Positions 265 to 63,693 of a stretch of 64,000 nucleotides of DNA are shown one piece after another; the stretch's first letter is position 1; each line of letters begins with the position of its first letter. Position numbers and translations under genes: made by a program. Source of the DNA: Trichechus inunguis (lineage: Eukaryota); the NCBI GenBank assembly GCA_046562895.1, contig CM102164.1, positions 32,715,842 through 32,779,841 on the forward strand. The letters are read 5' to 3'. The notes beneath the pieces were generated by a model. That model ran no database searches and was not told where the DNA came from. It worked only from the letters and a program-made list of their open reading frames with translations.

Positions 265-448
265 TACAAGCATTAAGTACTCACACCCAGGAGAAATAGA
301 TGGCACTAGACTCTTGGTCATTTGTAATGTGGCCCTTGGGAAGTGTATGGACTTGTACAAGAAGGATTTTTCATTAACAGAAGCCCCACCAGGTTATGAC
401 AGTGTCCATGGAGTCTCACAAACAGCAACTGTCATCACGGACTTTGAG
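265..448 (+). CDS. PARP4: PARP4 exon (C-terminal part of the PARP catalytic domain). The acceptor is acag at 261-264 and the donor is GTATTT at 449. The exon starts in phase 2 (one base completes a split codon).
   Basis: The open frame reads TSIKYSHPGEIDGTRLLVICNVALGKCMDLYKKDFSLTEAPPGYDSVHGVSQTATVITDFE. This has the PARP signature pattern (LLGEVALG ... PPG.DSV.G). The exon is flanked by AG and GT, and its frame continues cleanly into the next exon. Confidence 0.75.
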
Positions 449-661
449 GTATTTTTATCAAGAAATAGACAAAGTGTCAACTTTTTGCTCCTCGCTTTAT
501 TAAGTATGCTTAAGTGTAAATAATGATTGTATATGTATGGTCTCAATTCACTATTTTCTAAATTAGTAAACATGAAATTGTATTTTGTAAGAACACCTAC
601 CAACAAAATTTTTTTTGTTTTGTTTTGTTTTTTACCACCTGTTAATTTCTATTTGGCCTAG

Positions 662-818
662 GATGATGAATTTGTTGTATATAAAACCGATCAGATTAAA
701 ATGAATTATATTATTAAATTTTGCATTCCTGGAGACCAGAAAAAGGACTTTCATCCTTGTGGTAATACTGAATTAGAGGAATATGTACCTGAATTTTCAA
801 GTTTTCCAAAGGCTGAAG
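662..818 (+). CDS. PARP4: PARP4 exon (end of the catalytic domain, with the conserved Glu in DDEFVVYK, plus the linker). The acceptor is cctag at 660-661 and the donor is G|GTAAGA at 819.
   Basis: Translation is DDEFVVYKTDQIKMNYIIKFCIPGDQKKDFHPCGNTELEEYVPEFSSFPKAE plus one base. It is homologous to the PARP1 NEYIVYD..KYLLKL block. The exon ends in phase 1, which the next exon completes. Confidence 0.85.
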
Positions 819-1314
819 GTAAGACCATTTTCCTTTCCATTTATAAAACTCAAACCTTGTATCTTCAGTGGGCTTTATCTTCATGTTTGGTAACTATATC
901 TGTGACCCCATGTCTAAATATTTCCTTTTTATTTTCTACAAATAAAAACCAGGATGCTTGAGAGGGGTTAAGTGATCTCAAAAGTACATGTTATTTCATT
1001 AGCACACCTACATTTAACTTGTCCATCCCAGGATAGCTAATACTAAAACCTACTGAACAATTTTAAGATGTCACAGTACAAAAAGTATAATGGGAGTTGG
1101 TAGAATAGAAAGAAGACACAGTTTTTTAATCAGGAACCCTGGGTTTGAGCATCAACCCTGCCACTTCCTAGGCTGTGTAATCTTAGACAAATTGCATAAT
1201 CTTTCTGATCATCAGCTTCTTTCAGATGGAATGACAGCAATACTTGCTTCACAGTGTTGCCATAAGGGTTAAATGGGATAAACGAAGATACTCCATAAAT
1301 TTTAATGTATGGTA

Positions 1315-1413
1315 TAAATATATATGTATATATATATATACATATATATGTGTATATATATATACATATGTGTATATATATATACATATATATGTGTATA
1401 TATATATATATAT
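1315..1413. repeat. Compound microsatellite of the form (TA)n/(TGTATA)n.
   Basis: The sequence is atatatgtatatatatatatacatatatatgtgtatatatatatacatatgtgtatatatatata. Confidence 0.9.
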
Positions 1414-1920
1414 AATTAGTAAGACAGATGTATGAGAGGATGATAGCTTCTCAGAAAATGCAAAATTATAAGCTTAAAGTATTATAATATTAATCAGTAG
1501 GATTGTAAAATTACAACACATTAACATTTTTAACTTAGAAGATTTTTTTATCAGAATGTATGAGTTCGTGTATGTTCAAGAAGATGACTTCAAATTTTTC
1601 TCTATTAGTCATTAAATGAAATCTGTGGCAAGACAGTTTGTATTTATATAGTTAGCCATAATGTATTTCTGAACCACCTAGTATAATGCTTGAATGCTTT
1701 TCAATATGCTGTATTAGGAGTTTGGTTTAATCATTCTTGAATTGAAAATCTAAGTAGCTTCATGTTGCTGCAAAAGTGCTTTTATGGCAAAATACATAAT
1801 AATGACTAATACAAGTTGAGGTATACAGATATCTAGATTCATGCTTAAGCTTCATTTAGAAATTTTTAAGACCTCTTGTGTATTTGTGTGTATGTTTAAA
1901 TCAGTATCTTTCAAGTAATG

Positions 1921-2087
1921 GGAGCCCTGGTGGTGTAGTGGTTAAGAACTTGGCTGCTAACCAAAAGATCGGCAGTTCGAATCCACCAGTCGCTCCTTGG
2001 AAACCCTATGGGATAGTTCTACTCTGTCCTGTAGGGTCGCTACAAGTCAGAATTGACTCGACAGCAATGGGTTTTTTTTCCAAGTAA
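1921..2087 (+). mobile_element. AfroSINE. This is a tRNA-derived, Afrotheria-specific SINE. Its 5' end is a tRNA-like head.
   Basis: It begins ggagccctggtggtgtagtggttaag...gcagttcgaatccaccag, which contains A and B boxes. It continues with ccttggaaaccctatgg...gggtcgctacaagtcagaattgactcgacagcaatgg. Confidence 0.85.
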
Positions 2088-2197
2088 TAGCATGATTCTA
2101 GGTGTTCAAAATGACTCCCAAAGTCTCTAGATTAAAAAGGCAGGAGTGTCTTTTGAAAATGCTGCCCCCATTTTTCTTGTGATCTTATACTTGAGTG

Positions 2198-2362
2198 GAG
2201 TCCCTGGGTAGTGCAAATGGTTAATGTGCACAGCTGCTAAATGAAAGACCTGGCAATCTACTTCCGAAAAATCAGCCATGGAAAACCCTCTGGATCATAG
2301 TTCTACCCTGACACACGTGGGGTCGCCATAAGTCAGGGTTGACTTGATGGCAACTGGTTGGG
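2198..2362 (+). mobile_element. AfroSINE-related SINE. This is the variant of the family that begins ccctgggtagtgcaaatggttaa.
   Basis: It begins ggagtccctgggtagtgcaaatggttaatg. Further on it contains ctacttccgaaaaatcagccatggaaaaccctctgg and ggggtcgccataagtcagggttgacttgatggcaactgg. Confidence 0.8.
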
Positions 2363-2535
2363 TAATTGAATTAACTTGTTTTTCAGAATTTGCTATTGAA
2401 AATCATAAAATGCTGTTTGTCCTATTGTCATAATGTAATGTATATAGGGAAGGAGAAGGAATGAAGATCAAGATAACAAAAATAGACCATGCAGGGATGG
2501 TTATAAAAACTAACATTAATGTTTTTAATATATAG

Positions 2536-2660
2536 ATTACCAGTTACCAGATACCAAACCTTTCAGCAATATCAAAGCCGGTCTTCAGGATACCTCTGGG
2601 AATTTAGTTCCTCTTGAGGATGTTCACATCAAGGGGAGAGTAATAGATGTTGTAGCCCAG
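2536..2660 (+). CDS. PARP4: PARP4 exon (linker and start of the VIT domain). The acceptor is tatag at 2534-2535 and the donor is GTATGC at 2661.
   Basis: The split codon g+at gives D, followed by YQLPDTKPFSNIKAGLQDTSGNLVPLEDVHIKGRVIDVVAQ. The codon phase is continuous with the flanking exons. Confidence 0.85.
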
Positions 2661-7501: not shown

Positions 7502-7633
7502 GTCATCGTTTTTCAGACATACACAAATCAAAGTCATGTGCCCATTGAGGCAAAATATATCTTTCCTCTGGATGATAAGGCTGCTGTGTGCGGTTTTGAA
7601 GCTTTCATCAACGGGAAGCATATAGTAGGAGAG
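7502..7633 (+). CDS. PARP4: PARP4 exon (VIT domain). The acceptor is ttcag at 7500-7501 and the donor is GTAAGG at 7634.
   Basis: Translation is VIVFQTYTNQSHVPIEAKYIFPLDDKAAVCGFEAFINGKHIVGE. This is a typical VIT-domain sequence, starting and ending in phase 0. Confidence 0.85.
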
Positions 7634-8413: not shown

Positions 8414-8500
8414 GTTAAAGAGAAGGAAGAAGCCCATCAAGAATACCAAGAAGCCATCAGTCAAGGCCACGGTGCTTACTTGATGGATCAGGATGCCCCT
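8414..8500 (+). CDS. PARP4: PARP4 exon (VIT domain). The acceptor is ccag at 8412-8413 and the donor is GTATGA at 8501.
   Basis: Translation is VKEKEEAHQEYQEAISQGHGAYLMDQDAP. The exon is in phase 0 on both sides. Confidence 0.8.
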
Positions 8501-9233: not shown

Positions 9234-9412
9234 AAACCAGCTGCCGTTGAGTCGACTCTGACTCATGGTGACCCCATGTGTGCTAGAGTAGAACTGTGCA
9301 CCATGGGGTTTTCAGTGGCTGATTTTTCGGAAGTAGATTCAGACCTTTCTTCTGAGGTGACTCTAGGTGGACTCGAACCACCAACCTTGCGGTTAGATTT
9401 CAGGGATAAATT
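9234..9412 (-). mobile_element. AfroSINE, 5'-truncated, in reverse orientation.
   Basis: It begins ctgccgttgagtcgactctgactcatggtgaccccatgtgtgctagagtagaactgtgcaccatggggttttcagtggctgatttttcggaagtag. This is the reverse complement of the 3' part of AfroSINE. Confidence 0.8.
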
Positions 9413-10975: not shown

Positions 10976-10989
10976 TACATGCTGTAAGT

Positions 10990-14010: not shown

Positions 14011-14029
14011 TTTTTCCCTTTTGTTTTAT

Positions 14030-16631
14030 TTTTTTATTATTGTGCTTTAAGTGAAAGTTTACAGTTAAAGTTAGTCTCTCATACAAAAATTTACACATAC
14101 ATTGTTATGTGACCCTAATTGCTCTCCCTGTACTGTGACAGCACACTCCTCCATTCCACCCTGGATTTCCCATGTCCGTTCAACCAGCTCCTGACCCTCT
14201 CTGCCTTCTCATCTCGCTTCTGGACAGGAGCTGCCTATGTAGTCTCATATATCTACTTGAGCTAAGAAGCACATTCTTCACAAGTATCATTTTATGTCCC
14301 ATAGTCCAGTCTAATCTTTGTCTGAAGGGTTGGCCTCGGAAATGGTTTTAGTTTGGGGTTAACAGAGAGTCCGGGGGCCGTGTCTTCTGGGGTCCCTCCA
14401 GTTTCAATCAAACCATTAAGTCTAGTCTTTTTACTAGGATTTGAGTTCTGCACCCCACTTTTCTCCTGCTCCATCAGGGACCGTCTGTTGTGTTCCCTGT
14501 CAGGATGGTCATTAGTGGTAGCCAGGCACCATTTAGTTCTTCTGCTCTCAGGCTGATGAAGTCTCTGGTTATGTGGCCCATTTTGTCTATTAGGCTAATA
14601 CTTTCCTTGTGTCTTTGGTGTTCTTCATTCTCCTTTGTTCCAGGCAGGTTGGCACCAATGGATGCATCTTAAATGGCCGCTTGCTAACTTTTAAGACCCC
14701 AGACACCACTCACCAATGTGGGATGCAGAACATTTAAAAAAGTTTGTTATGCCAGTTGACCTAGATGTCTCCTGAAACCATGGTCCCCAGACCCCTGCCC
14801 CTGCTACTCTGTCCCTCGAAGTGTTTGGTTGTATTCAGGAAACTTCTTAGCTTTGGATTAGTCCAATTGTAGCTGACTTCCCCTGTAGTGTGTGCTGTTC
14901 TTCCCTTCACCTAAGATAATTCTTGTCTACTATCTAGCTAGTGAATACCCCTCTCCCTCCCTCCCCACCCTCGTAACCATCAAAGAATGTTTACTTCTGT
15001 GTTTAAACCTTTTCTTGAGTTCTTATAATAGTGGTCTTATACAATATTTGTCCTTTTGCGACTGACTAAATTCACTCAGCATAATGCCTTCCAGATTCCT
15101 CCATGTTATGTTTCACAGATTCATCGTTTTTCTTTATCGTTGCATAGTATTCCATTGTATGAATATACCATAATTTGTTTATCCATTCGTATGTTGATGG
15201 GCACCTATATTGTTTCCATATTTTTGCTACTGTGAACAGTGCTGCAGTGAACATGGGTGTGTGTATATCTATCCATGCGATGGCTCTTATTTCTCTAGGA
15301 TATATTCCAAGGAGTAGGATTGCTGGATCATATGGTACTTCTATTTCTAGCTTTTTGAGGAAGCGCCAAATTGATTTTCAAAGTGGTTGTACCATTTTAC
15401 ATTCCCACCAACAGTGTATAATTGTTCCAGTCTCTCCACAGCCTCTCCAACATTTATTATTTCATGTTGTTTGGATTAGTGCTAGCCTTGTTGGGGTAAG
15501 ATGGTATCTCACTGTAGTTTTGATTTGCATTTTTTAATGGCTACTGATAGTGAGCATTTCCTCATGTGTCTGATACCTGCCTGAATATCTTCTTTGGCAA
15601 AGTGCCTGTTCATATCCTTTGTCCATTTTTTAATTGGGTTGTTTATCTTTTTGTTGTTGAGGTTTTGCAGTATCTTGTAGATTTCAGAGATTAGATGCTG
15701 ATCAGATTTGTCCTAGCCAAAACTTTTTCCCAGTCTGTAGGTTGTCTTTTTACTTTTTTGCTGAAGTCTTTTGATGAGCATAAGTGTTTGATTTTTAGGA
15801 GCTCCCAGTTATCTAGTTTCTCTTCTGGTGTTTGTGCATTGTTACTTATGGTTTGTATTGTGTTTATGCCATGTATTAGGGCTCCTAGAGTTGTCCCTAT
15901 TTTTTCTTCCATGAACTTTATCGTTTTAGATTTTATATATAGGTCTTTGATCCATTTTGAGTTAGTTTTTGTGCATGGTGTGAGGTATGGGCCTTGTTTA
16001 ATTTTTTTCAGATGGATATCCAGTTATGCCAGCACCATTTGTTAAAGAGACTGTCGTTTCCCCAATTAACGGACTTTGGGCCTTTGTCAAATATCAGCTG
16101 CTCATAGGTGGATGAATTTACATCTGGATTCTGAATTGTGTTCCACTGGTCTATGTATTTATTGTTGTACCAGTACCAGATTGTTTTGACTACCATAGCA
16201 GTATAATAGGTTCTAAAATCAAGTAGTGTGAGGCCTCTCACTTTGTTCTTCTTCTTGAGTAATGCTTTACTTATCCGGGGCCTCTTCCCTTTCCATATAA
16301 AGTTGCTGAGTTTTTTCTCCATCGCATTAAAAAATGCCGTTGGAATTTGGATCGGGATTACATTGTAGCTGTAGATCGCTTTGGGTAGAATTGACATTTT
16401 CACAATGTTGAGTGTTCCTATCCATGAGCAAGGTATGTTTTTCCATTTATGAAGGTCTCTTTTGGTTTCTTGCAGTAGTGTCTTGTAGTTTTCATTGTAT
16501 AAGTCTTTTACGTCTCTGGTTAGATTTATTCCTAAGTATGTTATTTTCGTGGAGGCTATTGTAAATGGTATTCATTTGGTGATTTCCTCTTCGAAGTTCT
16601 CTTTGTTGGTGTAGAAGAGTCCAACTGTTTT
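14030..16631 (-). mobile_element. L1 copy A. It is 5'-truncated and consists of the 3' UTR plus the C-terminal half of ORF2. It belongs to the subfamily whose 3' UTR lacks the internal duplication.
   Basis: A poly-T tract at its low-coordinate end is the poly-A tail in reverse. The 3' UTR is homologous to the other copies, and reverse-strand ORF fragments carry L1 ORF2 C-terminal motifs (for example ORF 16008-16403). Confidence 0.8.
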
Positions 16632-19600
16632 TTTTTTTTTTTTAATTGTACTTCAGGTGAAGGCTTACAGAACAAATAGTTTCTCATGAAACAGTAGTAC
16701 ACATATTGTTTTATGACATTGCTTAACAACCCCACAACACGTCAACCCTCTCCCTTCTCGAGCCTTTTTTTTTTGGTGAAAATATACATAGCCAAAGATA
16801 CACCATTTCAAAAATTTCTACATGCACAGTTCAGTGACATCGACTGCGCTCTTCCAGTTGTGCTGCTATTCTCACTTGAGATGAAGGCTTACAGAACAAA
16901 ATAGTTTCTCATTAAACAGCTAGTATACATGTTGTCCTATGACAATGGTTAACAACCTCACAACACATCAACACTATCCTTACTCAACCTTGGGTTCCCT
17001 ATCACCAGCTTTCCTGTCCCCTTCTGCCTTCTGGCCCTTGTCCCTGGACTGCTGTGCCTCATTACTCCCATTTGGTTTTATGGGTCTGTCCACTCCCCGA
17101 CTGAATGGTGAACCTCGGAAATGACTTCACGACTGAGCTAAAAGGGTTTCTGGGGGCCATACTCTCGGGGTTTCTCCAGTCTCCTTTAGGCCAGTAAATC
17201 TGGTCTTTTTTTTTTGTGAGTTAGAATTTTGTTCTACATCCTTCTCCGGCGCTGTCCAGAACCCTCTGTTGTGATCCTGGTCAGAGCAGTCCGTGGTGGT
17301 AGCCGGGTACCATCTAGCTGTACTGGACTCAGTCTGGTGGAGGCCTTGGTAGCTGTGGTCCATTAGTCCTTCGGACTAATCTTTTCCTTGTATCCTGTTC
17401 TCTTCATTCCCCCTTGCTCCGGAAGGGGTGAGACCAGTGGAGTATTTTAGATGGCTGCTCACAGGCTTTTAAGACCCCAGACTCTACTCACCAGGGTAGA
17501 ATGTAGAACATTGTCTTTATAAACTGTGTTATGCCAGTTGAGCTAGATATTCCCCGAGACAATGGTCCCCAGAGCCCTCCGCCCAGCAATTCAGTCCCTC
17601 AGGGTGTTTGGATGTGTCTATGGAGCTTCCATGACCTTTACTTGTACAAGTTGTGCCCGCTTCCCCAGTATTGTGTACTGTCTCACCCTTCACCAAAGAT
17701 ACCACTTATCTATTGCCTATTTAGTATTTCCCCCCACCCCTCCCATGCCTCGTAACCAACAAAGGTTGTTACTTTTTGTGTGTAAACTTTTTCATGGGTT
17801 TTTGCAATGGAGGTCTCATACAATAGTTGTCCTTTTGTGATTGACTTATTTCACTCAGCATAATATCCTCCAGTTTCATCCATGTTAGCAGATGCTTCAC
17901 AGATTCATCATTGTTCTTTATCATTGTGTAGTACTCCATTGTGTGTATGTACCATAGTTTGTTTATCCATTCATCTGTTGATGGGCATCTAGGTTGTTTT
18001 CATCTTTTTGCTATTGTGAACAATGCTGCCATGAACATAGGCGTGCATATGTCTATTTGAGTGACGACTCTTATTTCTCTAGGATATATTCCTAGGAGTG
18101 GAGTTGCTGGATGGAATGGTATGTCTATTTCTAGCTTTCTAAGGAGGCGCCATATCCTTTTCCGAAATGGTTGTATCATTTTGCATTCCCACCAGCAGTG
18201 CATAAGAGTTCCGATCTCCCCACAGCCTCTCCAACATTTTTTATTTCCAGTGTTTTTGATTCGTGCCAGTAATGCCGGGGTGAGATGGTATCTCATTGTG
18301 ATTTTATTTTGCACTTCTCTAATGGCTAGTGAATGCGAGTATTTCCTCATGTGTCTGTTGGCCATTTGAATGTCTTCTTTGGTGAAGTGTCTGTTCATTT
18401 CCTTTGCCCATTTTTTAATAGGATTATTTGTCTTTTTGTTGTAGAGGTATTGGATTTTTTGTAGATTATGGAGATTAGACCTTTGTCTGACTTGGACTGT
18501 CCAGAAATTTTTTTCCCAGTCTGTAGGTTCTCTTTTTACTCTTTTGGTGAAGTCTTTTGAAGAGCATAGGTGTTTGATTTTTAGAAGATCTCAGTTATCT
18601 AGCTTATCTTCTGGGGTTTGTGTGTTGATGGTTTGTATCCTGTTAATGCTGTGTGTTAGGGCCTGTAGTGTTGGTCCTATTTTTTCATCTATGAACCTTA
18701 TAGTTTTTGGCTTTATATTTAGGTCTTTGATACATTTTGAATTAGTTTTTGTATATGGCATGGGGTATGGGTCCTGTTTCATTTTTTTGCAGATGGATAT
18801 CCAGTTTTGCCAGCACAATTTGTTAAAAAGACTGTCTTTTCCCCATTTGATGGACTTTGGGCCCTTGTCGAAGATCAGGTGACCATAGGTAGATGGATTT
18901 ACATCTGGTTTCTCAATTCCATTCCATTGGTGGATGTATCTGTCATTGTACCAGTACCAGGCTGTTTTGACTACCGTAGTTGTATAGTAGGTGCTGAGGT
19001 CAGGTAGTGTGAGTCCTCCTACATTATTTTTCTTCTTCAACAGTGCTTTACTTATTCAGGGCTTCTTCCCTTTCCATATAAAGTTAATGATTAGTTTTTC
19101 CATCTTTTTAAAGAATGTTGTTTGTATTTGAATCGGGTTTGCATTATATTTGTAAATTGCCTTGGTGGAATTGTCATTTTCACAATGTTGAGTCTACCTA
19201 CCCATGAACATGGTATGTTTTTCCATTTATTTAGATCCCTTTGGGTTTCTTGCAGTAGTGTTTTGTAGTTTTCTTTGTATAGGTTGTTTATATCCCTGAT
19301 TAGATTTTTTCTTAACTATTTTATTTTTTTAGGGGCTTTTATAAATGGTATTGTTTTCCTGATTTCCTTTTCATCGTTCTCTTTATCGGTGTATAGGAAT
19401 CCAACTGATTTTTGTATGTTTATCTAGCATCCTGCTACTCTGCTGAATTTTTCTACTAGTTTCAGTAGATTTCTCACGGTGTCTTTAGGGTTTTCTATGT
19501 ATAGTGTTACATCATCCGCAAACAGGGACGGTTTAACTTCTTCTTTACCAATTTGGATGCCCTTTATGTCTTTTTTTGCCTTATTGCTCTAGCTAGAACT

Positions 19601-20935
19601 TCAAGCACAATGTTACGTAGGAATGGTGTTAAAGGGCATCCTTGTCTTGTTTCTGTTCTCAAGCGGAATGTTTTCAGTCTCTCTCCATTAAGAATGATGT
19701 CGGCTGCTGGTTTTGCATAGATCCCCTTTATTTTGTTGAGAAATATCCCTTCTATACCTATTTTATTGAGAGTTTTTATCAGGAATGGGTGTTGGACTTT
19801 GTCGAATGCCTTTTCTGTGTGAATCGAGATGCTCATGTGATTCTTGTCTTTCCTCTTATTTATGTGGTAGATTACGTTGATTGATTTTCTAATGTTGAAC
19901 CATCCTTGCATACGTGGTATGAGTCCTACTTGGTCGCGGTGTATTTTTTTTTTTTTTTTTTTGATATGATGCTGAATTCTATTGGCTAGAATTTTGTTGA
20001 AAATTTTTGCATCTATATTCATGAGAGATATTGGTCTGTAATTTTCTTTTTTTGTGGTGTCTTTGCCTGATTTTGTTATCAGGGTTATGCTGGCTTCATA
20101 GAATGAATTCAGAAGTGTTGCTTCCTTTTGTATGTTGTGAAGTAGTTTGAGTAGTACTGGTACAAGCTCTTGTCTGAATGTTTTGTAGAATTCTCCAGTG
20201 AAGCCATCTAGGGCAGGGCTTTTTTTTTGGTTGTGAGTTTTTTAATTACCTTTTTAATCTCTTCTTTTGTTATAAATTTATTTAGTTGTTCTTCCTATGT
20301 TTGTGTTAGTTTAGGTAGGTAGTGAGTTTCTAGAAATTTGTCCATTTGCTCTAGGTTTTCAAATTTGGTGGCGTACAATTTTTCATAGTATTCCGTTATG
20401 ATTCTTTTATTTTCAGGTGGGTCTGTTGTGATATTGCCCATCTCATTTCTTATTCGGGTTGTTTGCTTCCTCTCTTGTTTTTCTTTTGTCAGTTTGGCCA
20501 GTGGTTTATTGATTTTGTTGATCTTTTCAAAGAACCAACTTTTGGTCTTGTTAACTCTTTCAATTGTTTTTCTGTTCTCTATTTCATTTAATTCTGCTTC
20601 AATTTTTATTTTTTCCTTTCTTCTGGTGCCTGAGGGCTTCTTTTACTGCTCTCTATATATTTGGGTTGTAAGGTTAATGTTTTCATTTTGGCACTTTCTT
20701 CTTTTCGGATGTATGCATTTATTGCTATAAATTGATTTCTGAGCACTGCTTGTGCTGTTTCCCAAAGGTTCTGGCAGGATGTGTTTTCATTCTCATTTGA
20801 TTCTGTGAATTTCCTTATTCTGTCCTTAATTTCTTCTATAACCCAGTAGTTTTTGAGCAAGGTGTTGTTCAGTTTCCATGTATTTAACTTTTTTCCTTGC
20901 TTTTTCTGGTATTGATTTCTCCTTTTATGGCTTTA
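16632..20935 (-). mobile_element. L1 copy B. It has a poly-A tail, a 3' UTR with an internal duplication of about 230 bp, and ORF2 running from the C-terminus through the RT domain to the region upstream of RT.
   Basis: Poly-T at 16620-16640. Reverse-strand ORFs 18000-18398, 18591-19040, 19564-20022 (RT) and 20606-20860 all carry clear L1 ORF2 similarity. The homology is lost at about 20935. Confidence 0.85.
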
Positions 20936-26847: not shown

Positions 26848-27012
26848 GAAGTTTTTACTGTAAGCGTTGGGAACTTACCCCCTAAGGCTAAGGTTCTTAT
26901 CAAAATTACCTATGTCACTGAACTCGGTGTCCAAGGCACTGCTGCTGTCTTCTTCATGCCTGCCACTGTGGCACCCTGGCAACAAGACAAAGCATTGAAT
27001 GAAAACGTTCAG
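26848..27012 (+). CDS. PARP4: PARP4 exon (VIT domain). The acceptor is tttcag at 26846-26847 and the donor is GTTAGT at 27013.
   Basis: Translation is EVFTVSVGNLPPKAKVLIKITYVTELGVQGTAAVFFMPATVAPWQQDKALNENVQ. It follows the previous exon after an intron of about 18.3 kb that is filled with L1 copies. Confidence 0.85.
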
Positions 27013-28059: not shown

Positions 28060-28106
28060 GATACAGTAGAGAAGATTTGCATCAAGGAAATAGGGACAAA
28101 GCAAAG
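28060..28106 (+). CDS. PARP4: PARP4 micro-exon (47 nt). The acceptor is tacag at 28058-28059 and the donor is GTTAGT at 28107.
   Basis: Translation is DTVEKICIKEIGTKQ plus ag. The exon ends in phase 2, which the next exon completes as AGC (Ser). Confidence 0.8.
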
Positions 28107-28252: not shown

Positions 28253-28331
28253 CTTCTCTTTGAGTATGTATATTGAGATGCCGTACGTGATTGAATTCAT
28301 TTCTAGTGATACACATAAACTAAAACAAAAG
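28253..28331 (+). CDS. PARP4: PARP4 exon (79 nt). The acceptor is cgatag at 28251-28252 and the donor is GTTAGT at 28332. Only a 146-nt intron separates it from the previous micro-exon.
   Basis: After the completed Ser codon it reads FSLSMYIEMPYVIEFISSDTHKLKQK. The codon phase is continuous. Confidence 0.8.
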
Positions 28332-29328: not shown

Positions 29329-30892
29329 TTTTTGTTTTTTGTTTTATTTTGTTTTTTTGTACTTCAGGTGAAGGCTTACAGAACAAATAGTTTCTCATGA
29401 AACAGTAGTATGCATATTGTTTTATGACATTGGTCAACAACCCCACAGCATGTGAACCCTCTAACTTCTCAACCTTTTTTTTTGGTGAAAATACACATAG
29501 CCAAAGATACACCATTTCAAAAATTTCTACATGCACAGTTCAGTGACATTGACTATGCTCTTCCAGTTGTGCTGTTATTCTCACTTAAGATGAAGGCTTA
29601 CAGAACAAAATAGTTTCTCATTTAACAGTTACTACAAATGTTGCCCTATGACAGTGGTTAACAATCTCACAACACATGAACAATATCCTTACTCATCCTT
29701 GGGTTCCCTATCACCAGCTTCCTTGTCCCCTTCTGCCTTCTGGCCCTTGTCACTGGACTCCTGTACCTCGTTAGTCTCATTTGGTTTTACGGGGCTGTCC
29801 ACTCCCAGGCTGAATGGTGAACCTTGGAGATAACTTCACCACTGAGCTAAAAGGGTGTCTGGGGGCCATACTCTCAGGGTTTCTCCAGTCTCCTTTAGGC
29901 CAGTAAATCTGGTCTTTTTTTTGTGAGTTAGAATTATGTTCTACATCCTTCTCCAGCTCTGTCCAGAACCCTCTGTTGTGATCCTGGTCAGAGCAGTCAG
30001 TGGTGGTAGCCGGGCACCATCTAGCTGTACTGGACTCAGTCTGGTGGAGGCCTTGGTAGCTGTGGTCCATTAGTCCTTCGGACTAATCTTTTCCTTGTAT
30101 CCTGTTCTCTTCATTCTCCCTTGCTCCCGAAGGGATGAGACCAGTGGAGTATCTTAGATGGCCACTCACAGGCTTTTAAGACCCCAGACACTACTCACCA
30201 AGGTAGAATGTAGAGCATTGTCTTTATAAGCTGTGTCATGCCAATTGAGCTAGATGTTCCCTGAGACCATGGTCCCCACAGCCCTCCGCCCAGCACTTCA
30301 GTCCCTCAGGGTGTTTGGATGTGTCTATGGGGCTTCCATGACCTTTCCTTGTACAAGTTGTGCTAGTTTCCCCTGTATTGTGTACTGTCTCACCCTTCAC
30401 CCAAGATACCACTTATCTATTGCCTATTTAGTATTTCCCCCCCACCCCTCCCATCCCTGGTAACCAACAAAGATTGTTACATTTTGTGTGTGAACTTCTG
30501 CATGGGTTTTACAATAGAGGTCTCATACAATATTTGTCCTTTTGTGATTGACTTATTTCACTCAGCATCATGTCCTGCAGTTTCATCCATGTTATGAGAT
30601 GGTTCACAGATTCATTGTTGTTCTTTCTGGTTGCATAGTACTCCATTGTGTGTATGTGCCATAGTTGGTTTATCCATTCATCTGTTGATGGGCATCTAGG
30701 TTGTTTCCATCGTTTTGCTGTTGTGAACAATGCTGCCATGAACATAGGTGTGCATATGTCTATTCGAGTGACGACTCTTATTTCTCTAGAATATTTTCCT
30801 AGGAGTGGAATTGCTGGATTGAATGGTATGTCTATTTCTAGCTTTCTGAGGAAGCACCATATCATTCTCCAAAATGGTTGTATCATTTGCAG
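29329..30892 (-). mobile_element. L1 copy F. It consists of the 3' UTR plus the ORF2 C-terminus.
   Basis: Poly-T plus gtacttcaggtgaaggcttacagaacaaatag. The reverse ORF at 30509-30886 reads ...LGKYSREIRVVTRIDICTPMFMAALFTTAKRWKQPRCPSTDEWINQLWHIHTMEYY, which is the L1 ORF2 C-terminal end. Confidence 0.8.
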
Positions 30893-31734
30893 CCCCAGTT
30901 TTAAGGTTTGCTTATTCAGAATAGACGAGACTTTAGCTCTCTTCCCCCTTCACTTACCTCGTTCCTCATTTTTTCTCTCCCCTTATCCCAGAATAGTTAT
31001 ATCACAATTTTGGTTAAAGCCATAGTCAGTGTTCAAGTTATTATGACTATGTTAATACTGCTTACAGTTGAGCCAAGAACTGTATTATGATTACATATTA
31101 TATCTTCATATAGTGATTCCTGAAGAAAAAGGTCTTTTCATTTACTTAGTTTTCTAGGGATTATCCATATTTCTTCTCATATGCTCTAATACATTGGTAA
31201 AGACCCCTCTCAATACTATCTTTCACACTGTTAAATGCTTCAAATAATTCATCAATTTATTTTTTCCTTAGAGACCTCCCTCCCTTCCATCTTTCTGCTC
31301 CACTTGGCCTGGTTACTGTTTGGCAGCCTCCCTTTACTGTTTTTTTTTTTTTTTTAAGCCTTTTTCCTATTTCTTGTTTTAGTCCTTCAGTTTTGCAGAG
31401 CACACTTTCCATTAACTTCCTGAGTAAGAATGCGTGGGCGGTAAAGTCTGACAATATCTTGCTTCTACATGCTGCACTGGTTCATGTGATGGGGTATAGA
31501 ATTCTGAGTTGGAAATCATTTTCTCTCAGAATATTAAAGGCATTGTCTTCTAGCTTCCAGTATTACTTTGAGAAATTCAGTGATATTCTTAGCCCACAGT
31601 GTTTGTATACGGTCTTTTTTTTTTTTTTTTTAATTTCTTTATGAGTTCCAGATCTTCTCTTTATTCCCGGAATTTTGAAATTTCATAATAATGTGAGCTT
31701 CATTCATCATTCATGACTCATAGCCTTTTTTAAT

Positions 31735-38404: not shown

Positions 38405-38542
38405 CACACAGACTGCAAAGCTGTAATTAGCACTGTGGAAGGTAGTTCCTTAGACAGCAATGGATTTTCTCTCCACATCGGTTTGTCTGATGCATATCTC
38501 CCAAGAATGTGGGTTGAAAAATATCCTGATAAAGAAAGTGAG
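38405..38542 (+). CDS. PARP4: PARP4 exon (between the VIT and vWA domains). The acceptor is ttttgtag at 38403-38404 and the donor is GTATAC at 38543.
   Basis: Translation is HTDCKAVISTVEGSSLDSNGFSLHIGLSDAYLPRMWVEKYPDKESE, in phase 0 on both sides. Confidence 0.85.
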
Positions 38543-42735: not shown

Positions 42736-45700
42736 GTTTTTTTTTTTTTCTTTTTTTTTTTTAATCGTACTTCAGGTGAAGGTTTACAGAACAAATAGTC
42801 TCTCATTAAACAGTAGTACACATATTGTTTTATGACATTGGTTAACAACCCCACGACATGTCAACCTTCTCCCTTCTCGACTTTTTTTTTTTTTTTTTTT
42901 GGTGAAAATATACATAGCCAAAGATACACCATGTCAAAAATTTCTACATGCACAGTTCAGTGACATTGACTACGCTCTTCCAATTGTGCTGCTATTCTCA
43001 CTGTAGATGAAGGCTTACAGAACAAAATAGTTTCTCATTAAACAGTTAGTACACATGTTGCCCTATGACAATGGTTAACAACCTCACATCAACACTGTCC
43101 TTACTCAACCTTGGGTTCCCTATCACCAGCTTTCTTGTCCCCTTCTGCCCTCTAGCCTTTGTCCTTGGACTGCTGTGCCTCATTAGTCCTGTTTTGTTTT
43201 ATGGTGCTGTCCAATCCCCAGCTGAATGGTGAACCTCGGAAGTGACTTCACCACTGAGCTAAAACGGTGTCTGGGGGCTATACTTTCGGGATTTCTCCAG
43301 TCTCCTTTAGGCCAGTAAATCTGGTCTTTTTTTGTGTGTGTTAGAATTTTGTTCTACATCCTTCTCCAGCTCCGTCCAGAGCCCTCTGTTGTGATCCCAG
43401 TCAGAGCAGTCAGTGGTGGTAGCCAGGCAACATCTAGCTGTACTGGACTCAGTCTGGTGGAGGCCTTGGTAGCTGTGGTCCATTAGTCCTTTGGACTAAT
43501 CTTTTCCTTGTATCCTGTTCTCTTCATTCTCCCTTGCACCCGAAGGGATGAGACCAGTGAAGTATCTTAGATGGCTGCTCACAGGCTTTTAAGATCCCAG
43601 ATGCTACTCACCAAGGTAGAATGTAGAACATTGTCTTTATAAACTGTGTTATGCCAGTTGAGTTAGATGTTCCCCGAGACCATGGTCACCACAGCCTCCG
43701 CCCAGCAATTCAGTTCCTCAGGGAGATTGGATGTGTCTATGGAGCTTCCATGACCTTGCCTTGTACAAGTTGTGCTGGTTACCCCAGTACTGTGTACTGT
43801 CTCACCCTTCACCAAAGATACCACTTATCTATTGCCTATTTAGTATTCCCCCAGCCCCACCCCTCCCATCCCTGGTAACCAACAAAGATTGTTACTTTTT
43901 GTGTGTAAACTTTTTCATGGGTTTTTGCAATAGAGGTCTCATACAATAGTTGTCCTTTTGTGATTGACTTATTTCACTCAGCATAATGTCCTCCAGTTTC
44001 ATCCATGTTATGAGATGCTTCCCAGATTCATCATTGTTCTTTCTCGTTGCATAGTACTCCATTGTGTATATGTACCATAGTTTGTTTATCCATTCATCTG
44101 TTGATGGGCATCTGGGTTGTTTGCATCTTTTTGCTATTGTGAACAGTGCTGCCGTGAACATGGGTGTGCATGTCTATTCGTGTGACGGCTCTTATTTCTC
44201 TAGGATATATTCTTAGGAGTGGGATTGCTGGATCGTATGGTATTTCTATTCTAGCTCTCTGAGGAAGCACCATGTCCTTTTCCAAAATGGTTGTATCATT
44301 TTGCATTCCCACCAGCAGTGCATAAGAGTTCCGATCTCCCTGCAGCCTCTCCAACATTTGTTATTTCCAGTGTTTTTGATTTGTGCCAGTAATGCCGGGG
44401 TGAGATGGTATCTCATTGTGGTTTTAATTTGCATTTCTCTAATGGCTAGTGAACGCAAACATTTCCTCATGTGTCTGTTGGCTTCTTGAATGTTTTCTTT
44501 GGTGAAGTGTCTGTTCATTTCCTTTGCTCGTTTTTTAATAGGATTATTTGTCTTTTTGTTGTAGAGGTGTTGGATTTTCTTGTAGATTATGGAGATTAGA
44601 CCTTTGTCTGAGTTGGACCGTCCAAAAATTTTCTCCTAGCCTGTAGGTTCTCTTGACTCTTTTGGTGAAGTCTTTTGAAGAGCATAGGTGTTTGATTTTT
44701 AGAAGATCCCAGTTATCTAGCTTATCTTCTGGGGTTTGTGTGTTGATATTTATGGTTTGTATCCTGTTAATGCCATGTATTTGGGCCTGTAGCATTGGTC
44801 CTATTTTTTCTTCTATGAACTTTATAGTTGTTGGCTTTATATTTAGGTCTTTGATCCATTTTGAATTAGTTTTTGTATATGGCGTGAGGTATGGGTCCTG
44901 TTTCATTTTTTTGCAGATGAATATCCAGTTTTCCCAGCACAATTTGTTAAAAAGACTGTCTTTTCCCCATTTGATGGACTTTGGGCCCTTGTCGAAGATC
45001 AGATGACCGTAGGTGGATGGATTTACATCTGGGCTCTCAATTCTCTTCCATTGGTGGATGTATCTGTCGTTGTACCAGTACCAGGCTGTTTTGACTACCG
45101 TAGCTGTATAGTAGGTTCTGAGATCAGGTAGTGTGAGTCCTCCAAGTTTATTCTTCTTCTTCAATAGTGCTTTACTTATTTGGGGCTTCTTCCCTTTCCA
45201 TATAAAGTTAATGATTAGTTTTTCCATCTCTTTGAAGAATGTGGTTGGTATTTGGATTGGGATTGCATTGTATTTGTAAATTGCTTTGGGTAGAATTGTC
45301 ATTTTCACAATGTTGAGTCTACCTATCCCGGAGCATGGTATGTTTTTCCATTTATGTAGATCCCTTTGAGTTTCTTGCAGTAGTGTTTTGTGGTTTTCTT
45401 TGTATAGGTCTTTTACATCCCTGGTTAGATTTATTCTTAAGTATTTTTCTTTTTTAGGGGTTATTATAAATGGTATTATTTTCCGGATTTCCTTTGCATC
45501 ATTCTCTTTTTTGGTGTATAGGAATCCAACTGATTTTTGTATGTTTGTCTTGTATCCTGCTACTCTGCTGAATCTTTCTATTAGTTCCAGTAGATTTCTC
45601 GTGGAGTCTTTAGGGTTTTCTACGTATAGTATCATATCATCTGCAAACAGGGACAGTTTAACTTCTTCATTACCAATTGGGATGCCCTTTATTTCTTTTT

Positions 45701-47700
45701 CTTGCCTTATTGCTCTAGCTGGGAGTTTGAGCACAATGTTAAATAGGAGTGGTGATAAAGGGCATCCTTGTCTTATTTCTGTTCTCAAGGGGAGTGTTCT
45801 CAGCATCTCTCATCAAGAATGATGTTGGCTGTTGGTTTTTCATAGATGCCGTTTATTATGTTGAGAAATTTCCCTTCTATACCTATTTTATTGAGAGTTT
45901 TTATCAGGAATGGGTGTTGGACTTTGTCGAATGCCTTTTCTGCATCAAGTGAGATGATCATGTGATTCTTTTCTTTCCTTTTATTTATGTGGTACATTAC
46001 GTTGATTGATTTTTTAATGTTGATCCATCCTTGCATACATGGTATGAATCCTACTTGGTCGTGGTATATTATTTTTTTGATATGATGCTGAATTCTACTG
46101 GCTAGAATTTTGTTGAGAATTTTTCATCTATATTCATGAGAGATATTGGGCTGTAATTTTATTTTTTTGTGGCATCTTAGCCTGGCTACGGTATCAGCAT
46201 TATGCTGGCTTCTTAGAATGAATTCGGAAGTGTTGCTTCCTTTTCTACGCTCTGAAATAGCTTGAGTAGTACTGGTACAAGCTCTTCTGTGAATGTTTTG
46301 TAGAATTCTCCAGTGAAGCCATCTGGGCCAGGGCTTTTTTTTGTTGGAAGTTTTTTTATTACCTTTTCAATCTCTTCTCTTGTTATGGGTCTGTTCACAT
46401 TTTCAACATCACTTTGTGGTAGTTTGGGTAGGTAGCGTGTTTCTAGAAATTTGTTCATTGCCTCTAGGTTTTCAAATTTGTTGGAGTATAGTTTTTGATA
46501 ATATTCTGTTATGATCCTTTTTCTTTCAGTTGGGTCTGTTGTAAGGTCGCTGATTTTATTTCTTATTTGGCTTATTTGCATCCTCTCCTGTTTTTCTTTT
46601 GTCTGTCTGGCCAGTGGTTTGTCGATTTTGTTGATTCTTTCTTAGAACCAACTTTTGGTTTTGTGGATTCTTTCTATTGTTTCTCTGTTCTCTATTTCAT
46701 TTATTTCTGCTCTGATCTTTATTATTGCCTTTCTTCTGGTGCCTGTGGGCTTTTTTATTGCTGTTCTCTTTCTATTTGTTTGAGTTTCTGTAGTTAATGT
46801 TTTGATTTTGTCCCTTTCTTCTTTTTTGATGTGTGCATCTGTAGCTATAAATTGTCCTCTGAGGATTGCCTTTGCTGTGTCCCAAAGGTTTTGGTATGAT
46901 GTGTTTTCATTCTTGTTTGATTCTCGGAATTTTTTGATTCCATCTCTGATTTCTTCTAGTACCCAGTGATGTTTAAGCAGGGTATTATTCAGTTTCCCTG
47001 TGATTGATTATATTTCCTTGCTCTTTGTGTTGTTAATTTCTACCTTGATGGCATTGTGGTCATAGAAGATACTTTGAATTATCTCAACGTTTTGGATCTT
47101 GTTGAGGATTGCTCTGTGGCCTAAGATGTGGTCTATTCCGGAGAATGTTCCATGTGCATTGGAAAAGAATGTGTACTTTGCAGCTGTTGGATGGAGTGTC
47201 CTATGTAAGTCTATGAGGTCATGTTGGCTGATTGTGCCCTTTAGTTTCTTTTTAGTTGTTCTGTCCTTTACTGGGAGTAGTGTGTTGAAGTCTCCTACTA
47301 TTATTGTGGAACTGTCAATTTCTCTTTTCAGTGTTGTTAGAGTTTGTTTTATGTATTTTGGAGCCCTGTCATTGGGTGTGTAGATGTTTATTATGGTTAT
47401 GTCTTCATGATAGATCGTCCCCTTAATCATTATATAGTGTCCTTTTTTGTCTTTTATGGTGGATTTTGTTTTAAAATCTATTTTGTCTGAGATTAGTGTT
47501 GCCATTCCTGCTGTCTTTTGGTAGTTGTTAGCGTGATATATTTTTTTCTAACCTTTGACGTTTAATAAATTCACGTCTTTGTTTCTAAAGTGTATCTCTT
47601 GTAGACAGCATATTGATGGATCCTGTTTTCTTATGCATTCTGTCACTCTCCGCAGAGACAGGAGTTTTTATGTTGTTCCTAAAATACAGGACTTGTAAGA
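42736..47700 (-). mobile_element. L1 copy I, about 5 kb. It has a poly-A tail, a full 3' UTR with the internal duplication, and nearly complete ORF2 broken by frameshifts. It is 5'-truncated near the ORF2 start.
   Basis: The reverse ORF at 44544-45806 (420 aa) spans the RT domain (...FADDMILY...) and the C-terminal region. ORF 46213-46581 carries the linker upstream of RT (TDPTE...YYQKLY...[11 protein letters not shown]). ORF 47008-47505 carries the endonuclease domain. The sequence at 47600-47690 matches the ORF2 N-terminus (..IRKQDPSICC.QE.H.). Confidence 0.9.
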
Positions 47701-48124
47701 AAATGTTGCTCATGCCTTATTTAAAATGCTTGTAAGACAAATAATTCTTGTAGTGGGTCAGATAAAGATACATTTAGGTTCTTGTTAGTATAGTTTATTG
47801 GCCTACTTGTTCTTGTTACCCTTAAGCCCCCAAATTAAAGTATTACTTTCTGTTCAGCTTTTTACTTGATACTGAGGGGCATGTATTTGTCTAGCTCTGG
47901 AATTACTTTCAACCAATAGCACTTTTTTCTTTCCTCTGTGCTGTGTTCATGAATAAGGCCATCCAGAACCCACAGGTAACCATTCTTACCACACAGTGAT
48001 GTCCGCCTGCCCCTGTTGTAAATCACTGTGTTGGGTTAAACCAAGATGAAATTTGCTAATGCCTTTCTATACTTAGCTAACGTGATCTGGAGCAATTGGG
48101 TATACTAAATGAACACTTGCTTTG

Positions 48125-54250
<6,126 letters not shown>

Positions 54251-54620: not shown

Positions 54621-54816
54621 GCTTGCATGCTTGTCTTTCAGCCAGATTTCAATATCACCCTCCCTGAAACAGCCAAGAGGAGTGAAGTGATTATCTGTCT
54701 TGATTGTTCCAATTCTATGAAGGGTGAAGCATTCTTGCAAGCTAAGAAAATTGCCTTATATGCACTGTCCCTGGTGGATAAAAACCAAAAAATAAACATT
54801 GTCAAGTTTGGTACAA
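54621..54816 (+). CDS. PARP4: PARP4 exon (start of the vWA domain, carrying the MIDAS motif D-C-S-N-S). The acceptor is a long poly-T tract ending in tag at 54619-54620 and the donor is A|GTAAGT at 54817.
   Basis: Translation is ACMLVFQPDFNITLPETAKRSEVIICLDCSNSMKGEAFLQAKKIALYALSLVDKNQKINIVKFGT plus one base. The DxSxS motif and the beta-strand/helix pattern are those of a von Willebrand A domain. Confidence 0.85.
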
Positions 54817-54939
54817 GTAAGTATTCTGGGGCTCTGAGCCAAAGTGAGCTTCCTCTTTAATATCAACACACTGTTGTGTAGAGCTGAATCAGTGAACCCG
54901 AACTCATTTGTAGAATGAAAGGTAGCATAGGGTTGAAGA

Positions 54940-55255
54940 TCAAGAGCTCTGGAGCCAGATTTCCTGGGTTCAAATTTCAGCTTTACTGCTAACACACAGG
55001 GTCGTCATGAGTCGGAATCAACTCGATGGCAACAACAACAGCAATAACCAATTACTAGCTATACATGTCACCTTATGCAAGTTTCTTGAACTTATGCCTC
55101 ACTTTACTCATCTGTAAATGAGGTTAATATGTAGGCCCTACCTCATAGGGTTGTTGTGAGGATTGAGTTAGGTAAGGTGCTTAAAGCAGTGCATATTACG
55201 TAGCGAGTGCTATGTAAATATAACTGTTAGCATTATTACTGACAGAACCAAAAGC
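54940..55255 (+). mobile_element. MIR SINE. It is interrupted by a short AfroSINE or RTE tail fragment at 54996-55045.
   Basis: The MIR head is gctctggagccagatttcctgggttcaaat. The MIR core is ctcactttactcatctgtaaatgaggttaatatgtaggccctacctcatagggttgttgtgaggattgag. The inserted fragment is cagggtcgtcatgagtcggaatcaactcgatggcaac. Confidence 0.6.
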
Positions 55256-55943: not shown

Positions 55944-56011
55944 GTTACAAGGAATTATTTTCATATCCTAAGTATATCACAAGTAATGAGATGCCAACAG
56001 AGTTCATTATG
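55944..56011 (+). CDS. PARP4: PARP4 exon (vWA domain). The acceptor is tgcag at 55942-55943 and the donor is GTGAGT at 56012.
   Basis: The split codon a+gt gives S, followed by YKELFSYPKYITSNEMPTEFIM. The codon phase is continuous. Confidence 0.8.
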
Positions 56012-56629: not shown

Positions 56630-56817
56630 GCTGCTTCACCTACCATGGGAAATACAGACTTCTGGAAAACTCTCCGATATTTAAATTTGCTGTACCCTTC
56701 TCAAGGGCTACGGAACATCCTCCTTATATCTGATGGGCACATTCAGAATGAGAGCCTCACATTCCAGCTGGTGAAAAGAAATGTCCAACACACCAGGTTG
56801 TTCACCTGTGGCACTGG
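56630..56817 (+). CDS. PARP4: PARP4 exon (vWA domain). The acceptor is ctccag at 56628-56629 and the donor is GTGAGT at 56818.
   Basis: Translation is AASPTMGNTDFWKTLRYLNLLYPSQGLRNILLISDGHIQNESLTFQLVKRNVQHTRLFTCGT plus gg. The exon ends in phase 2. Confidence 0.85.
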
Positions 56818-57082: not shown

Positions 57083-57109
57083 CTCGCTTGAAGTGATGCT
57101 AGTATGTAA

Positions 57110-59656: not shown

Positions 59657-59756
59657 TTCTACAGCAAATCATCATATCTTAAGGACTTTGTCCCAGCGTG
59701 GTGCCGGAGTATTTGAATATTTTAACTCAAAATCCAAGCATAGCTGGAAAACGCAG
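59657..59756 (+). CDS. PARP4: PARP4 exon (vWA domain). The acceptor is gattag at 59655-59656 and the donor is GTACGA at 59757.
   Basis: The split codon gg+t gives G, followed by STANHHILRTLSQRGAGVFEYFNSKSKHSWKTQ. The other candidate acceptor (acag at 59661-59664) gives an in-frame stop, so I rejected it. Confidence 0.75.
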
Positions 59757-60333: not shown

Positions 60334-60504
60334 ATAGAAGACCAAATGACTAGATTACACTCTCCGAGTTGCCACTCTGTCTCTGTCAAATGGCAGCAGC
60401 TAAGCACGAATTTGCCTGAGCCCTTGCAGGCACCAGCGTGGGTGCAGTCTTTGTTCCACAATGACCGCCTCCTCGTCTATGGGTTTATTCCGCATTGCAC
60501 ACAG
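60334..60504 (+). CDS. PARP4: PARP4 exon. The acceptor is aaatag at 60332-60333 and the donor is GTACAA at 60505.
   Basis: Translation is IEDQMTRLHSPSCHSVSVKWQQLSTNLPEPLQAPAWVQSLFHNDRLLVYGFIPHCTQ, in phase 0. Confidence 0.8.
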
Positions 60505-60995: not shown

Positions 60996-61076
60996 GCAAC
61001 TCTATGTGCATTAATTCAAGAGAAGGAATTTTGTACAATGGTATCAACTACAGAACTTCAGAAGACAACTGGAACT
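60996..61076 (+). CDS. PARP4: PARP4 exon (81 nt). The acceptor is ttcag at 60994-60995 and the donor is GTAAGA at 61077.
   Basis: Translation is ATLCALIQEKEFCTMVSTTELQKTTGT, in phase 0. Confidence 0.8.
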
Positions 61077-62416
61077 GTAAGATTTAAAATTTAAAATATG
61101 GACGCAGTGTTCCAAAGTTATATTTTTATATTTTAATATATAATGCTTCATCTACTTACTTCTTTTGTTGTTTTTCTGCACTGAAATTTCAACATGCAAT
61201 ATGAAGGATTGTTGTCTGTACAAATGAGAACACTTTCCTTAAGTTTCTAATGCAGAGGGACTTTATCTGGGGTTCAGTGTCCATAGATGAGCTTCAGTGG
61301 GTGTGAATAAAATTAAATATGGCGGTTTATGTATGAAAAGTTTTCTAGGGAGATCTCAAAGATAGCCATACCTCAATAAAAGTTAAGTGCTTCCGGTCTA
61401 CCTGTTTTTTTTTTTTTTACTATTAAGTATAACAGTACTAGAATAAGAGTAAACCATATCATATATTGAGACTATGTTTGTTTTTTCTGTTTTTGGATTA
61501 AAAGCAAATGAATTATCATCAAAAATTTTGCAGTATTTGCATTAGTACTGAATCCACTGTAGTTAGACTTTGAAAATTCTTAATCTGTATGTACTGATTA
61601 CATGTAGCTTGCTATTAATTGGAGTACTTGTATAACCAGATAAACCATTTCCCATATATTGCTGAAGTTTTTAAAAATAAAATATATCTTGCTTTTTGAC
61701 ACTGAATCAATAATTGTTGACTTATTACTTGCTAGTGATTTATGAATAGAACTTAAAGGAACTTAAGAACTTAAAGCTACATTGCTTTAAAAATTGAATC
61801 TGGGGGGGAAGAGATCTTTTTCCATTAAATGACAATTTTAATAGTCATACTTCCTCTATGAACTCTGACCTTATCAATAACACAATTACAAGACTTGGAG
61901 TTGTCACTGAAAGCAGATATTACCGTTCAAGATCAGTTGCATTTCTTAGTCATTTGAGAGAAAAGGAGGAAATCCTTCATAGTGCAATTTTTGCTGCTCT
62001 TGCTCTCAGAGCATGTTAATTTTGGATATGTTCATGTTGGGCATCACAGGGACTAAGCTGGCTCTTCCTACAGTAAAGAAACGGTTTTAAAATTTTGAAA
62101 TAAATTGAATTTGTGTAATGGCCTTTTAAAGAAAAGGCAAAACTGTAGGGACAGAAAACAGATCAGTGGTTGTTGCCAGGGGCTGAAGCTGGTTAGAGGG
62201 GCACGGGGAATATTTTAGAATGAAGGACATGTTCTGTGTATCTTTATTTCAGTTGAGGTTGTGCAACTGTATACATTTGTTAGAGGTCATCAAACTACAC
62301 TTTAAAAGGGTGCATTTAATGTATGTAAATTATACTTCAATTTAAAAAATGGTATTCTATACAAGTCTTTAATTAGAAGCCATTGGAATCTTTTTTCCTC
62401 TGCCTCCTAAACACAG

Positions 62417-62497
62417 ATGATTCACAAGCTGACAGCCCGAGCTCTCGTTAGAGATTTTGAATATGGCATTCTCCATGAAAATGAAACACAGCACCAG
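62417..62497 (+). CDS. PARP4: PARP4 exon (81 nt). The acceptor is acacag at 62415-62416 and the donor is GTCTGT at 62498.
   Basis: Translation is MIHKLTARALVRDFEYGILHENETQHQ, in phase 0. Confidence 0.8.
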
Positions 62498-62744
62498 GTC
62501 TGTTCTTTTCATAGTAGAAACCATTGCACATTGTTCTTGGTCATTCTTAAATTGATTTATCTTCAAAAATGTCAAGTCAGGACAGCTGGGTGGAAAAGAT
62601 GAGTGTGATTGTGGGAGGCCTCATTGCATCTGTCATATCTGTGTCTGGGGTGCAGGGTACTCAGTAAATGCATGTTGAATGAATTACCTAGGGAAAGAAC
62701 GCTAGTGGTTTCCTGAGAATTCAGTCAGGGGAGGAAAGAGAACA

Positions 62745-62935
62745 TTTACTAACTGTCTGTAATGGCTATGATCTCATTTCATTCTTACAACAAACCCATG
62801 TTGTAGGTGTTAGTATTCCCATTTTACTAATGAAGAAACTCAGGTGCACAAGGGGTTAGGGACCTGCCTCAGGACACACAGCAGAGCCAAAGTCCACCTT
62901 GCCCCTCCTGACTGTGCTGATGGCCCCTAGTCAAG
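62745..62935 (-). mobile_element. MIR SINE, in reverse orientation.
   Basis: It contains cccattttactaatgaagaaactcaggtgcacaaggggttagggacctgcctcaggacacacagc, which is the reverse complement of the MIR core. Confidence 0.55.
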
Positions 62936-63189
62936 GGTCTACTCAGCCACCTACTCTGACTGTCCTGGAGTCTCTCATGGGCTGGGATCTCAAATGTGGC
63001 CGGGGGCATTAGTGTTCAGTGCCATCCCTAAAGGAGGGTGCCTGTGTGCCACTCCGGGGTCTGGATGCCCTGCAAGCAGTCGTGGCCAGTAAAAAACTGC
63101 CTCTTGCTTTTCCCAGGACTTCTTTATTGCCCTCTGATTAGCAGGTTTATGTTCAGTTTTCCTAAGGTCGTTTTTCCCTTTGAGAGGCA

Positions 63190-63330
63190 GCACTGAACTC
63201 AGAGGTGGGCAGCCTGGCTCCTAATCAGCCCTGCCACTGACAAGTCACCCAGCCTCTCCAAGCTTTGATTCCTTGTCTTTAAAATGGGAACCAGAACATC
63301 TGCCTCACAAGTTGTATGTAAAAGAATAAG
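63190..63330 (+). mobile_element. MIR fragment.
   Basis: It contains ctggctcctaatcagccctgccactgacaagtcacc...ttgtctttaaaatgggaaccagaacatctgcctcacaagttgt, which matches the MIR core weakly. Confidence 0.4.
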
Positions 63331-63597
63331 AAATTATAAAGAGCTACATAAAAATTAATTATTTTTTCTGACTTAGTTCATCAGTTGATCTTATTTTGCA
63401 GGGAACGTTGGAGTCACCTATTTGATATTTAAATAGGATCATTGACTAAATATTTACTTTGAAATACTAATAAAATGATGTATTTGTCATAGAAAAACAA
63501 CTTTTTAGATTATTTAATACTCTTTTAATTGGTCATACGTAGGTAAATAGTAAAAAATAAAACAGGACATGATTTCATTTGTTTTCTTCTATCCTAG

Positions 63598-63693
63598 ATG
63601 AAGAAGCAGATCTTGAAATCGCTGATTATTAAAATCAGTAAAGAAAACTCTCTCCTAACACAATTTACAAGTTTTGTGGCAGTTGAAAAAAGG
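63598..63693 (+). CDS. PARP4: PARP4 exon (96 nt). The acceptor is cctag at 63596-63597 and the donor is GTATGT at 63694.
   Basis: Translation is MKKQILKSLIIKISKENSLLTQFTSFVAVEKR, in phase 0. The gene continues beyond the end of the window. Confidence 0.8.

Follow-up and report, generated by a model that had tools for sequence, protein, structure and literature searches.

A 64,000-nucleotide (nt) stretch of the Trichechus inunguis genome (assembly GCA_046562895.1, contig CM102164.1, forward-strand positions 32,715,842 to 32,779,841; hereafter the window, meaning the whole stretch that was analysed) appears to come from the interior of a placental mammal's PARP4 (vault PARP) gene, a 64-kb segment that is read from left to right and carries 17 exons. 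We put the probability of this reading at roughly 93%. The exon model spans positions 265-63693 on the + strand, and its spliced product matches human PARP4 over residues 484-1181, with residues 1-698 of the product aligned and no gap (PDB chain 11jf_P, also 9bw6 and 9bw7; 1332 bits, E=0). An initial annotation made from the letters alone had expected a PARP4 match at about human residues 500 to 1200, and that is where the match was found. Over the aligned region 579 of the 698 residues are identical to human PARP4 (83.0%), with 119 substitutions and zero indels.

Gene model

The exon blocks were located by local tblastn with a guide sequence of human PARP4 that is identical to the PDB human PARP4 chain over residues 484-1181. 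This search returned 17 collinear blocks on the + strand, with E-values as low as 1e-29. At each junction every frame-compatible AG acceptor and every GT or GC donor was enumerated, and the choice was then optimised junction by junction. A single GT-AG pair was clearly the best at all 16 junctions. The 17 exons sum to 2,095 nt and, spliced and read in phase 1, give 698 codons with no stop, while the remaining two phases of the same spliced exons contain 61 and 36 stops. All 34 of the flanking AG and GT dinucleotides are intact. The exons are 47 to 196 nt long, the introns 146 to 18,347 nt.

This independent rebuild reproduced the structure which the initial annotation had proposed: 17 exons on the + strand with AG/GT flanks and matching phases, and a product of 698 amino acids without a stop. 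The four peptides it had singled out all lie on the + strand at the expected sites (335, 662, 2604/7499 and 54684), and its size ranges, 47-196 nt for exons and 146 nt to about 18 kb for introns, agree exactly with ours.

Identity and domain content

Pfam finds three domains in the spliced product. The PARP domain covers residues 1-82 and matches model positions 95-198 of 199, which is the C-terminal half of the catalytic fold; VIT covers residues 140-250 at full length with 140 bits; and VWA_3/VWA covers residues 393-547 (VWA_3 393-541). The order PARP, VIT, vWA lies in one open frame across all exons, and it is exactly the order that had been read from the sequence in the initial annotation. 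That annotation had further held the order to be confined, among mammalian proteins, to PARP4. All named homologues with these domains in a large protein collection are called PARP4 or "poly [ADP-ribose] polymerase", and the named homologues with the same Pfam set range from mammals to molluscs, a coral and Trichoplax. The first 90 residues of the product are matched by the crystal chains 8swy and 8sx1 of the PARP4 ART domain. A protein search with a 63-amino-acid VIT peptide returned exon-sized fragments only and no full-length reference; the reference for comparison was the full-length human PARP4 PDB chain, and the human protein is UniProt Q9UKK3.

The VIT and vWA exons might instead belong to an inter-alpha-trypsin inhibitor (ITIH) heavy chain or to another gene with these two domains, since ITIH proteins also have the VIT and vWA arrangement, and ITIH4 and ITIH1 are the only PDB matches which are not PARP4. 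These matches reach 34 bits for ITIH4 and 25 bits for ITIH1 and cover the VIT region only, against the 1332 bits of the full gap-free PARP4 alignment. A PARP catalytic domain also lies directly upstream in the same reading frame, and the complementary DNAs (cDNAs) of other species join PARP and VIT exons. An ITIH best match was one of the outcomes which the initial annotation had named as speaking against it, and these scores go the other way. On the 25-34 bits over VIT only and the upstream in-frame PARP domain, an ITIH identity was ruled out, and we regard it as very improbable.

The exons of PARP4

All 17 exons lie on the + strand and share the same basis: tblastn, junction choice, AG/GT flanks and phase, cDNA comparison, and the human alignment. 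The first two exons complete the catalytic domain. Exon 1 (184 nt, 265..448) starts in phase 1, is matched by both cDNAs described below and corresponds to human residues 484-544, in the C-terminal half of the ART/PARP catalytic domain; it is 89% identical to human and gave the tblastn E-value of 1e-29. Exon 2 (157 nt, 662..818) corresponds to human 545-596, where the ART domain ends and the linker begins, and carries the equivalent of E547; its identity to human is 75%.

Four exons then encode the VIT domain. Exon 3 (125 nt, 2536..2660; human 597-638) holds linker sequence and the VIT start, and exon 4 (132 nt, 7502..7633; human 639-682) holds the VIT core with 98% identity to human. Exon 5 (87 nt, 8414..8500; human 683-711) continues VIT and is followed by the 18,347-nt intron, beyond which exon 6 (165 nt, 26848..27012; human 712-766) ends the domain. 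Exon 7 (28060..28106; human 767-781), at 47 nt the smallest, is 100% identical to human and is followed by the 146-nt intron. Exon 8 (79 nt, 28253..28331) corresponds to human 782-808 and exon 9 (138 nt, 38405..38542) to human 809-854.

The vWA domain starts in exon 10 (54621..54816; human 855-919), at 196 nt the largest, which contains the DxSxS motif and is 69% identical to human. It continues through exon 11 (68 nt, 55944..56011; human 920-942) and exon 12 (188 nt, 56630..56817; human 943-1004; 76% identity) and ends in exon 13 (100 nt, 59657..59756; human 1005-1038). The last four exons are exon 14 (171 nt, 60334..60504; human 1039-1095), exon 15 (81 nt, 60996..61076; human 1096-1122), exon 16 (81 nt, 62417..62497; human 1123-1149) and exon 17 (96 nt, 63598..63693; human 1150-1181), after which the gene extends past the window.

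Conservation varies along these exons. The least conserved against human are exons 10, 2 and 12, and exons 4, 7 and 15 are at 96-100% amino acid identity. The divergence of exons 2, 10 and 12 sits in linker segments, namely the ART-VIT linker and the segment before vWA, and is unrelated to the selection described for exon 30. The exon 4 peptide is 100% identical in a Logan contig of another species, yet the adjoining intron is only about 72% identical.

Splice signals

Open segments of 47-200 nt flanked by AG and GT are abundant: there are 15,561 of them on the + strand of the window. Because of this number, AG/GT flanks alone are weak evidence, and the case for the predicted gene model rests on homology and cDNA matches, not on those flanks. 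The same abundance could be taken to mean that chance alone produced the 17 open frames and their flanks. The signals at the 17 chosen sites are much stronger than the window background. The pyrimidine fraction at acceptor positions -20 to -4 is 0.72 in the 17 exons against 0.52 over all 3,945 AG sites in the window, and a pyrimidine stands at position -3 in 17 of 17 exons against a background of 53%. At the donors, the mean number of matches to the 9-position consensus is 6.9 for the 17 exons and 4.2 for all 4,261 GT sites. In 100,000 random draws, neither the acceptor nor the donor value of the exons was ever reached. With the 17 collinear tblastn blocks and the gap-free alignment of the spliced product at E=0, this strength led us to reject the chance reading, whose likelihood we consider vanishingly small.

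Transcripts of other mammals and selection

Two cDNA contigs from Logan were compared with the spliced coding sequence (CDS): SRR31578205_53130 (2,731 nt, with an open reading frame, ORF, of 767 amino acids) and SRR32937027_28287 (4,257 nt, with an ORF of 1203 amino acids). Since both carry long ORFs on short contigs, they were taken to be spliced transcripts. The cDNAs run contiguously from exon to exon, and the matches end within a few bases of the predicted boundaries. SRR31578205_53130 aligns over 1,312 nt in a single block without gaps, which covers exons 1-10 and junctions 1-9 at 85.5% identity; among the compared transcripts, none is closer to the CDS at the nucleotide level. SRR32937027_28287 covers all 2,095 nt at 81.5% identity and crosses 16 of 16 junctions without a gap; the only gaps in its alignment are a compensating pair of 1 nt each within exon 10. 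The prediction that the exons are spliced in this way is supported by these cDNAs of other mammals.

The first of the two contigs also shows a retained intron. Its positions 2386-2731 (compared with window positions 54817-54860) begin with GTGAG directly after exon 10, and so represent an intron retained from precisely the homologous donor position. Retention of intron 10 accounts for the truncated 767-amino-acid ORF of this contig. An equivalent read-through past exon 10 in the window would add 13 codons and then reach a stop. The intron-retaining contig probably reflects a transcript whose processing was incomplete or had not begun, and not a conserved isoform.

The ratio of nonsynonymous to synonymous substitution rates (dN/dS), by the Nei-Gojobori method, is 0.11 against SRR31578205_53130 and 0.14 against SRR32937027_28287. 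These ratios indicate that the predicted central region of PARP4 is under purifying selection. This fits published work in which PARP4, its large exon 30 excepted, was found to be under purifying selection (PMC4038475). Human exon 30 is the large, rapidly evolving and positively selected exon of PARP4 (PMC4038475), and its equivalent would lie downstream of the window. On that basis the 17 exons would be the counterparts of roughly human exons 13-29.

Several points weigh against the assignment to the PARP4 locus itself. Only about 40% of the PARP4 protein is encoded within the window, and the support for the junctions comes from transcripts of other mammals, not of the source species. The locus might be a duplicated PARP4 copy (a young unprocessed pseudogene, or else a paralogue of the "PARP4-like" kind) which has kept its intron-exon structure and need be neither expressed nor intact in its other parts. 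Database names include "PARP4-like" duplicates annotated in Pongo, Pan and Choloepus. One window cannot fix copy number or synteny, and within it a recent duplicate or an unprocessed pseudogene of young age would resemble the original gene. Against a duplicate stand the 698 open codons with their 34 of 34 intact AG/GT dinucleotides, the low dN/dS, the retained key residues, and an identity of 76-85% to other placental PARP4s, as expected of an orthologue; the window shows no sign of decay. We consider such a duplicate unlikely. Equally unlikely, in our estimate, is a lineage-specific second PARP4 copy, in an under-annotated and possibly afrotherian genome, which is under purifying selection and is not the canonical locus, and nothing in the window points there. 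The PARP4 gene itself remains the preferred assignment.

Key residues and expected function

Residues of known importance in human PARP4 are kept in the product. The metal site of vWA domains is marked by the motif DxSxS, which is present here as DCSNS (codons 54702-54716). The equivalent of the catalytic glutamate, human E547, is product residue 64, with its codon at 668-670. The PARP4-specific T484 is kept as product residue 1, a threonine encoded by ACA at 266-268. In human PARP4 the H-Y-E catalytic triad consists of H438, Y477 and E547, and T484 is a PARP4-specific residue of the acceptor site which replaces K903 of PARP1 (PMC10711553). Of the triad, E547 is the member that falls within the window; the codons for the equivalents of H438 and Y477 lie upstream of it.

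Spliced at their GT-AG introns, the 17 exons would give mRNA for the equivalent of human residues 484-1181: the C-terminal half of ART, the linker, VIT, vWA, and the conserved segment after vWA. Judging by the literature on the human protein, the full protein would also have an N-terminal BRCT-WGR-HD part, encoded upstream of the window, and a C-terminal domain for interaction with MVP (MINT), encoded downstream. The homologues in the protein collection carry PF00533/PF16589 (BRCT) and PF26166 (WGR-like_PARP4). By analogy with human PARP4, the protein may act as a mono-ADP-ribosyltransferase which uses NAD+, and may dock inside vault particles. For the human protein, mono-ADP-ribosylation with NAD+, docking in vaults and the BRCT-WGR-HD part have been described (PMC10711553, PMC12280208), as have the domain organisation and the docking of the MINT domain inside vaults (PMC12280208). 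The function of the PARP4 VIT-vWA module is described there as unknown or as putative cargo interaction (PMC10711553, PMC12280208).

Introns and repeats

The window has a GC content of 38.6% and a CpG observed/expected ratio of 0.22, as in vertebrate genomic DNA. No intronic RNA genes were found in it with Rfam at gathering thresholds or, for tRNA, with ARAGORN. When the long intronic ORFs were compared with Pfam, four were pieces of L1 ORF2 and six matched no family, and this comparison found no second gene in the window. The LINE-1 ORF2 fragments (RVT_1, Exo_endo_phos) lie on the - strand, antisense to PARP4, at 15000-20100, 30500-31000 and 44500-51000, in introns 5, 8 and 9. The sense strand of the non-exon DNA contains 35.8% T against 25.7% A, an excess which fits this antisense LINE-1 load. 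Mutation bias associated with transcription probably adds to the excess as well.

The 3' core motif of RTE/Bov-B-type short interspersed nuclear elements (SINEs), GAGTCGGAATCGACTCGACGGCA-like, occurs twice in the window with at most 3 mismatches, where 0 copies are expected by chance. One copy is at 9242-9264 on the - strand and the other at 55009-55031 on the + strand, the latter followed by a CAA-rich tail. A further GAGTCGGAATCGACTCGACGGCA-like core of this type was seen at about 1990-2060 on the + strand. These cores resemble the AfroSINE family and would fit the afrotherian source at which the initial annotation hinted, an origin which is plausible. The likeness to AfroSINEs is suggestive: the CAA-rich tail is compatible with the (CAA)n tails tabulated for elephant AFROSINE2/AFROSINE-2_LA, and tails of this type are also given for a horse SINE (PMC6007223). 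Intron 2 also contains a (TA)n-rich microsatellite at 1313-1414, which was scored in addition as a 24-nt period with 4.4 copies. Altogether the introns are of the usual mammalian kind, rich in the remains of antisense LINE-1 elements and SINEs.

Comparison with known systems

The domain layout, the crystal and cryo-EM structures and the evolution of PARP4 have been published (PMC10711553, PMC12280208, PMC4038475). The gain here is an accurate 17-exon model of the conserved central part of PARP4 in one more placental mammal, with little beyond annotation. The work also shows that an exact multi-exon mammalian gene model, such as the one in the initial annotation, can be obtained from raw sequence alone.

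ITIH heavy chains share the VIT and vWA module with PARP4 and have no PARP domain; the central part of PARP4 has been termed the "ITIH-like region" (PMC10711553). Among PARP4 proteins, those of Nannospalax galili, Equus asinus, Choloepus didactylus and other mammals have 76-85% protein identity to the product over the full region (85% for the sloth), and those of birds and turtles about 66%. These identities place the source among the placental mammals and do not tell one placental order from another; exact look-ups of two ORFs specific to the window returned no record. The Logan PARP4 cDNAs of other mammals have the same exon joins as the window, with no indel at any junction. Human PARP4, as seen in the full-length structures 11jf, 9bw6 and 9bw7 and in the ART and HD-ART crystals 8swy, 8swz, 8sx1 and 8sx2, has the same domain order, the same length over the aligned region, T484, E547 and DxSxS, and differs by substitutions that cluster in exons 10, 2 and 12 (69%, 75% and 76% identity). 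The gene in the window is PARP4 with the exon-intron structure and domain layout already known for it, a well-known gene with nothing unusual about it.

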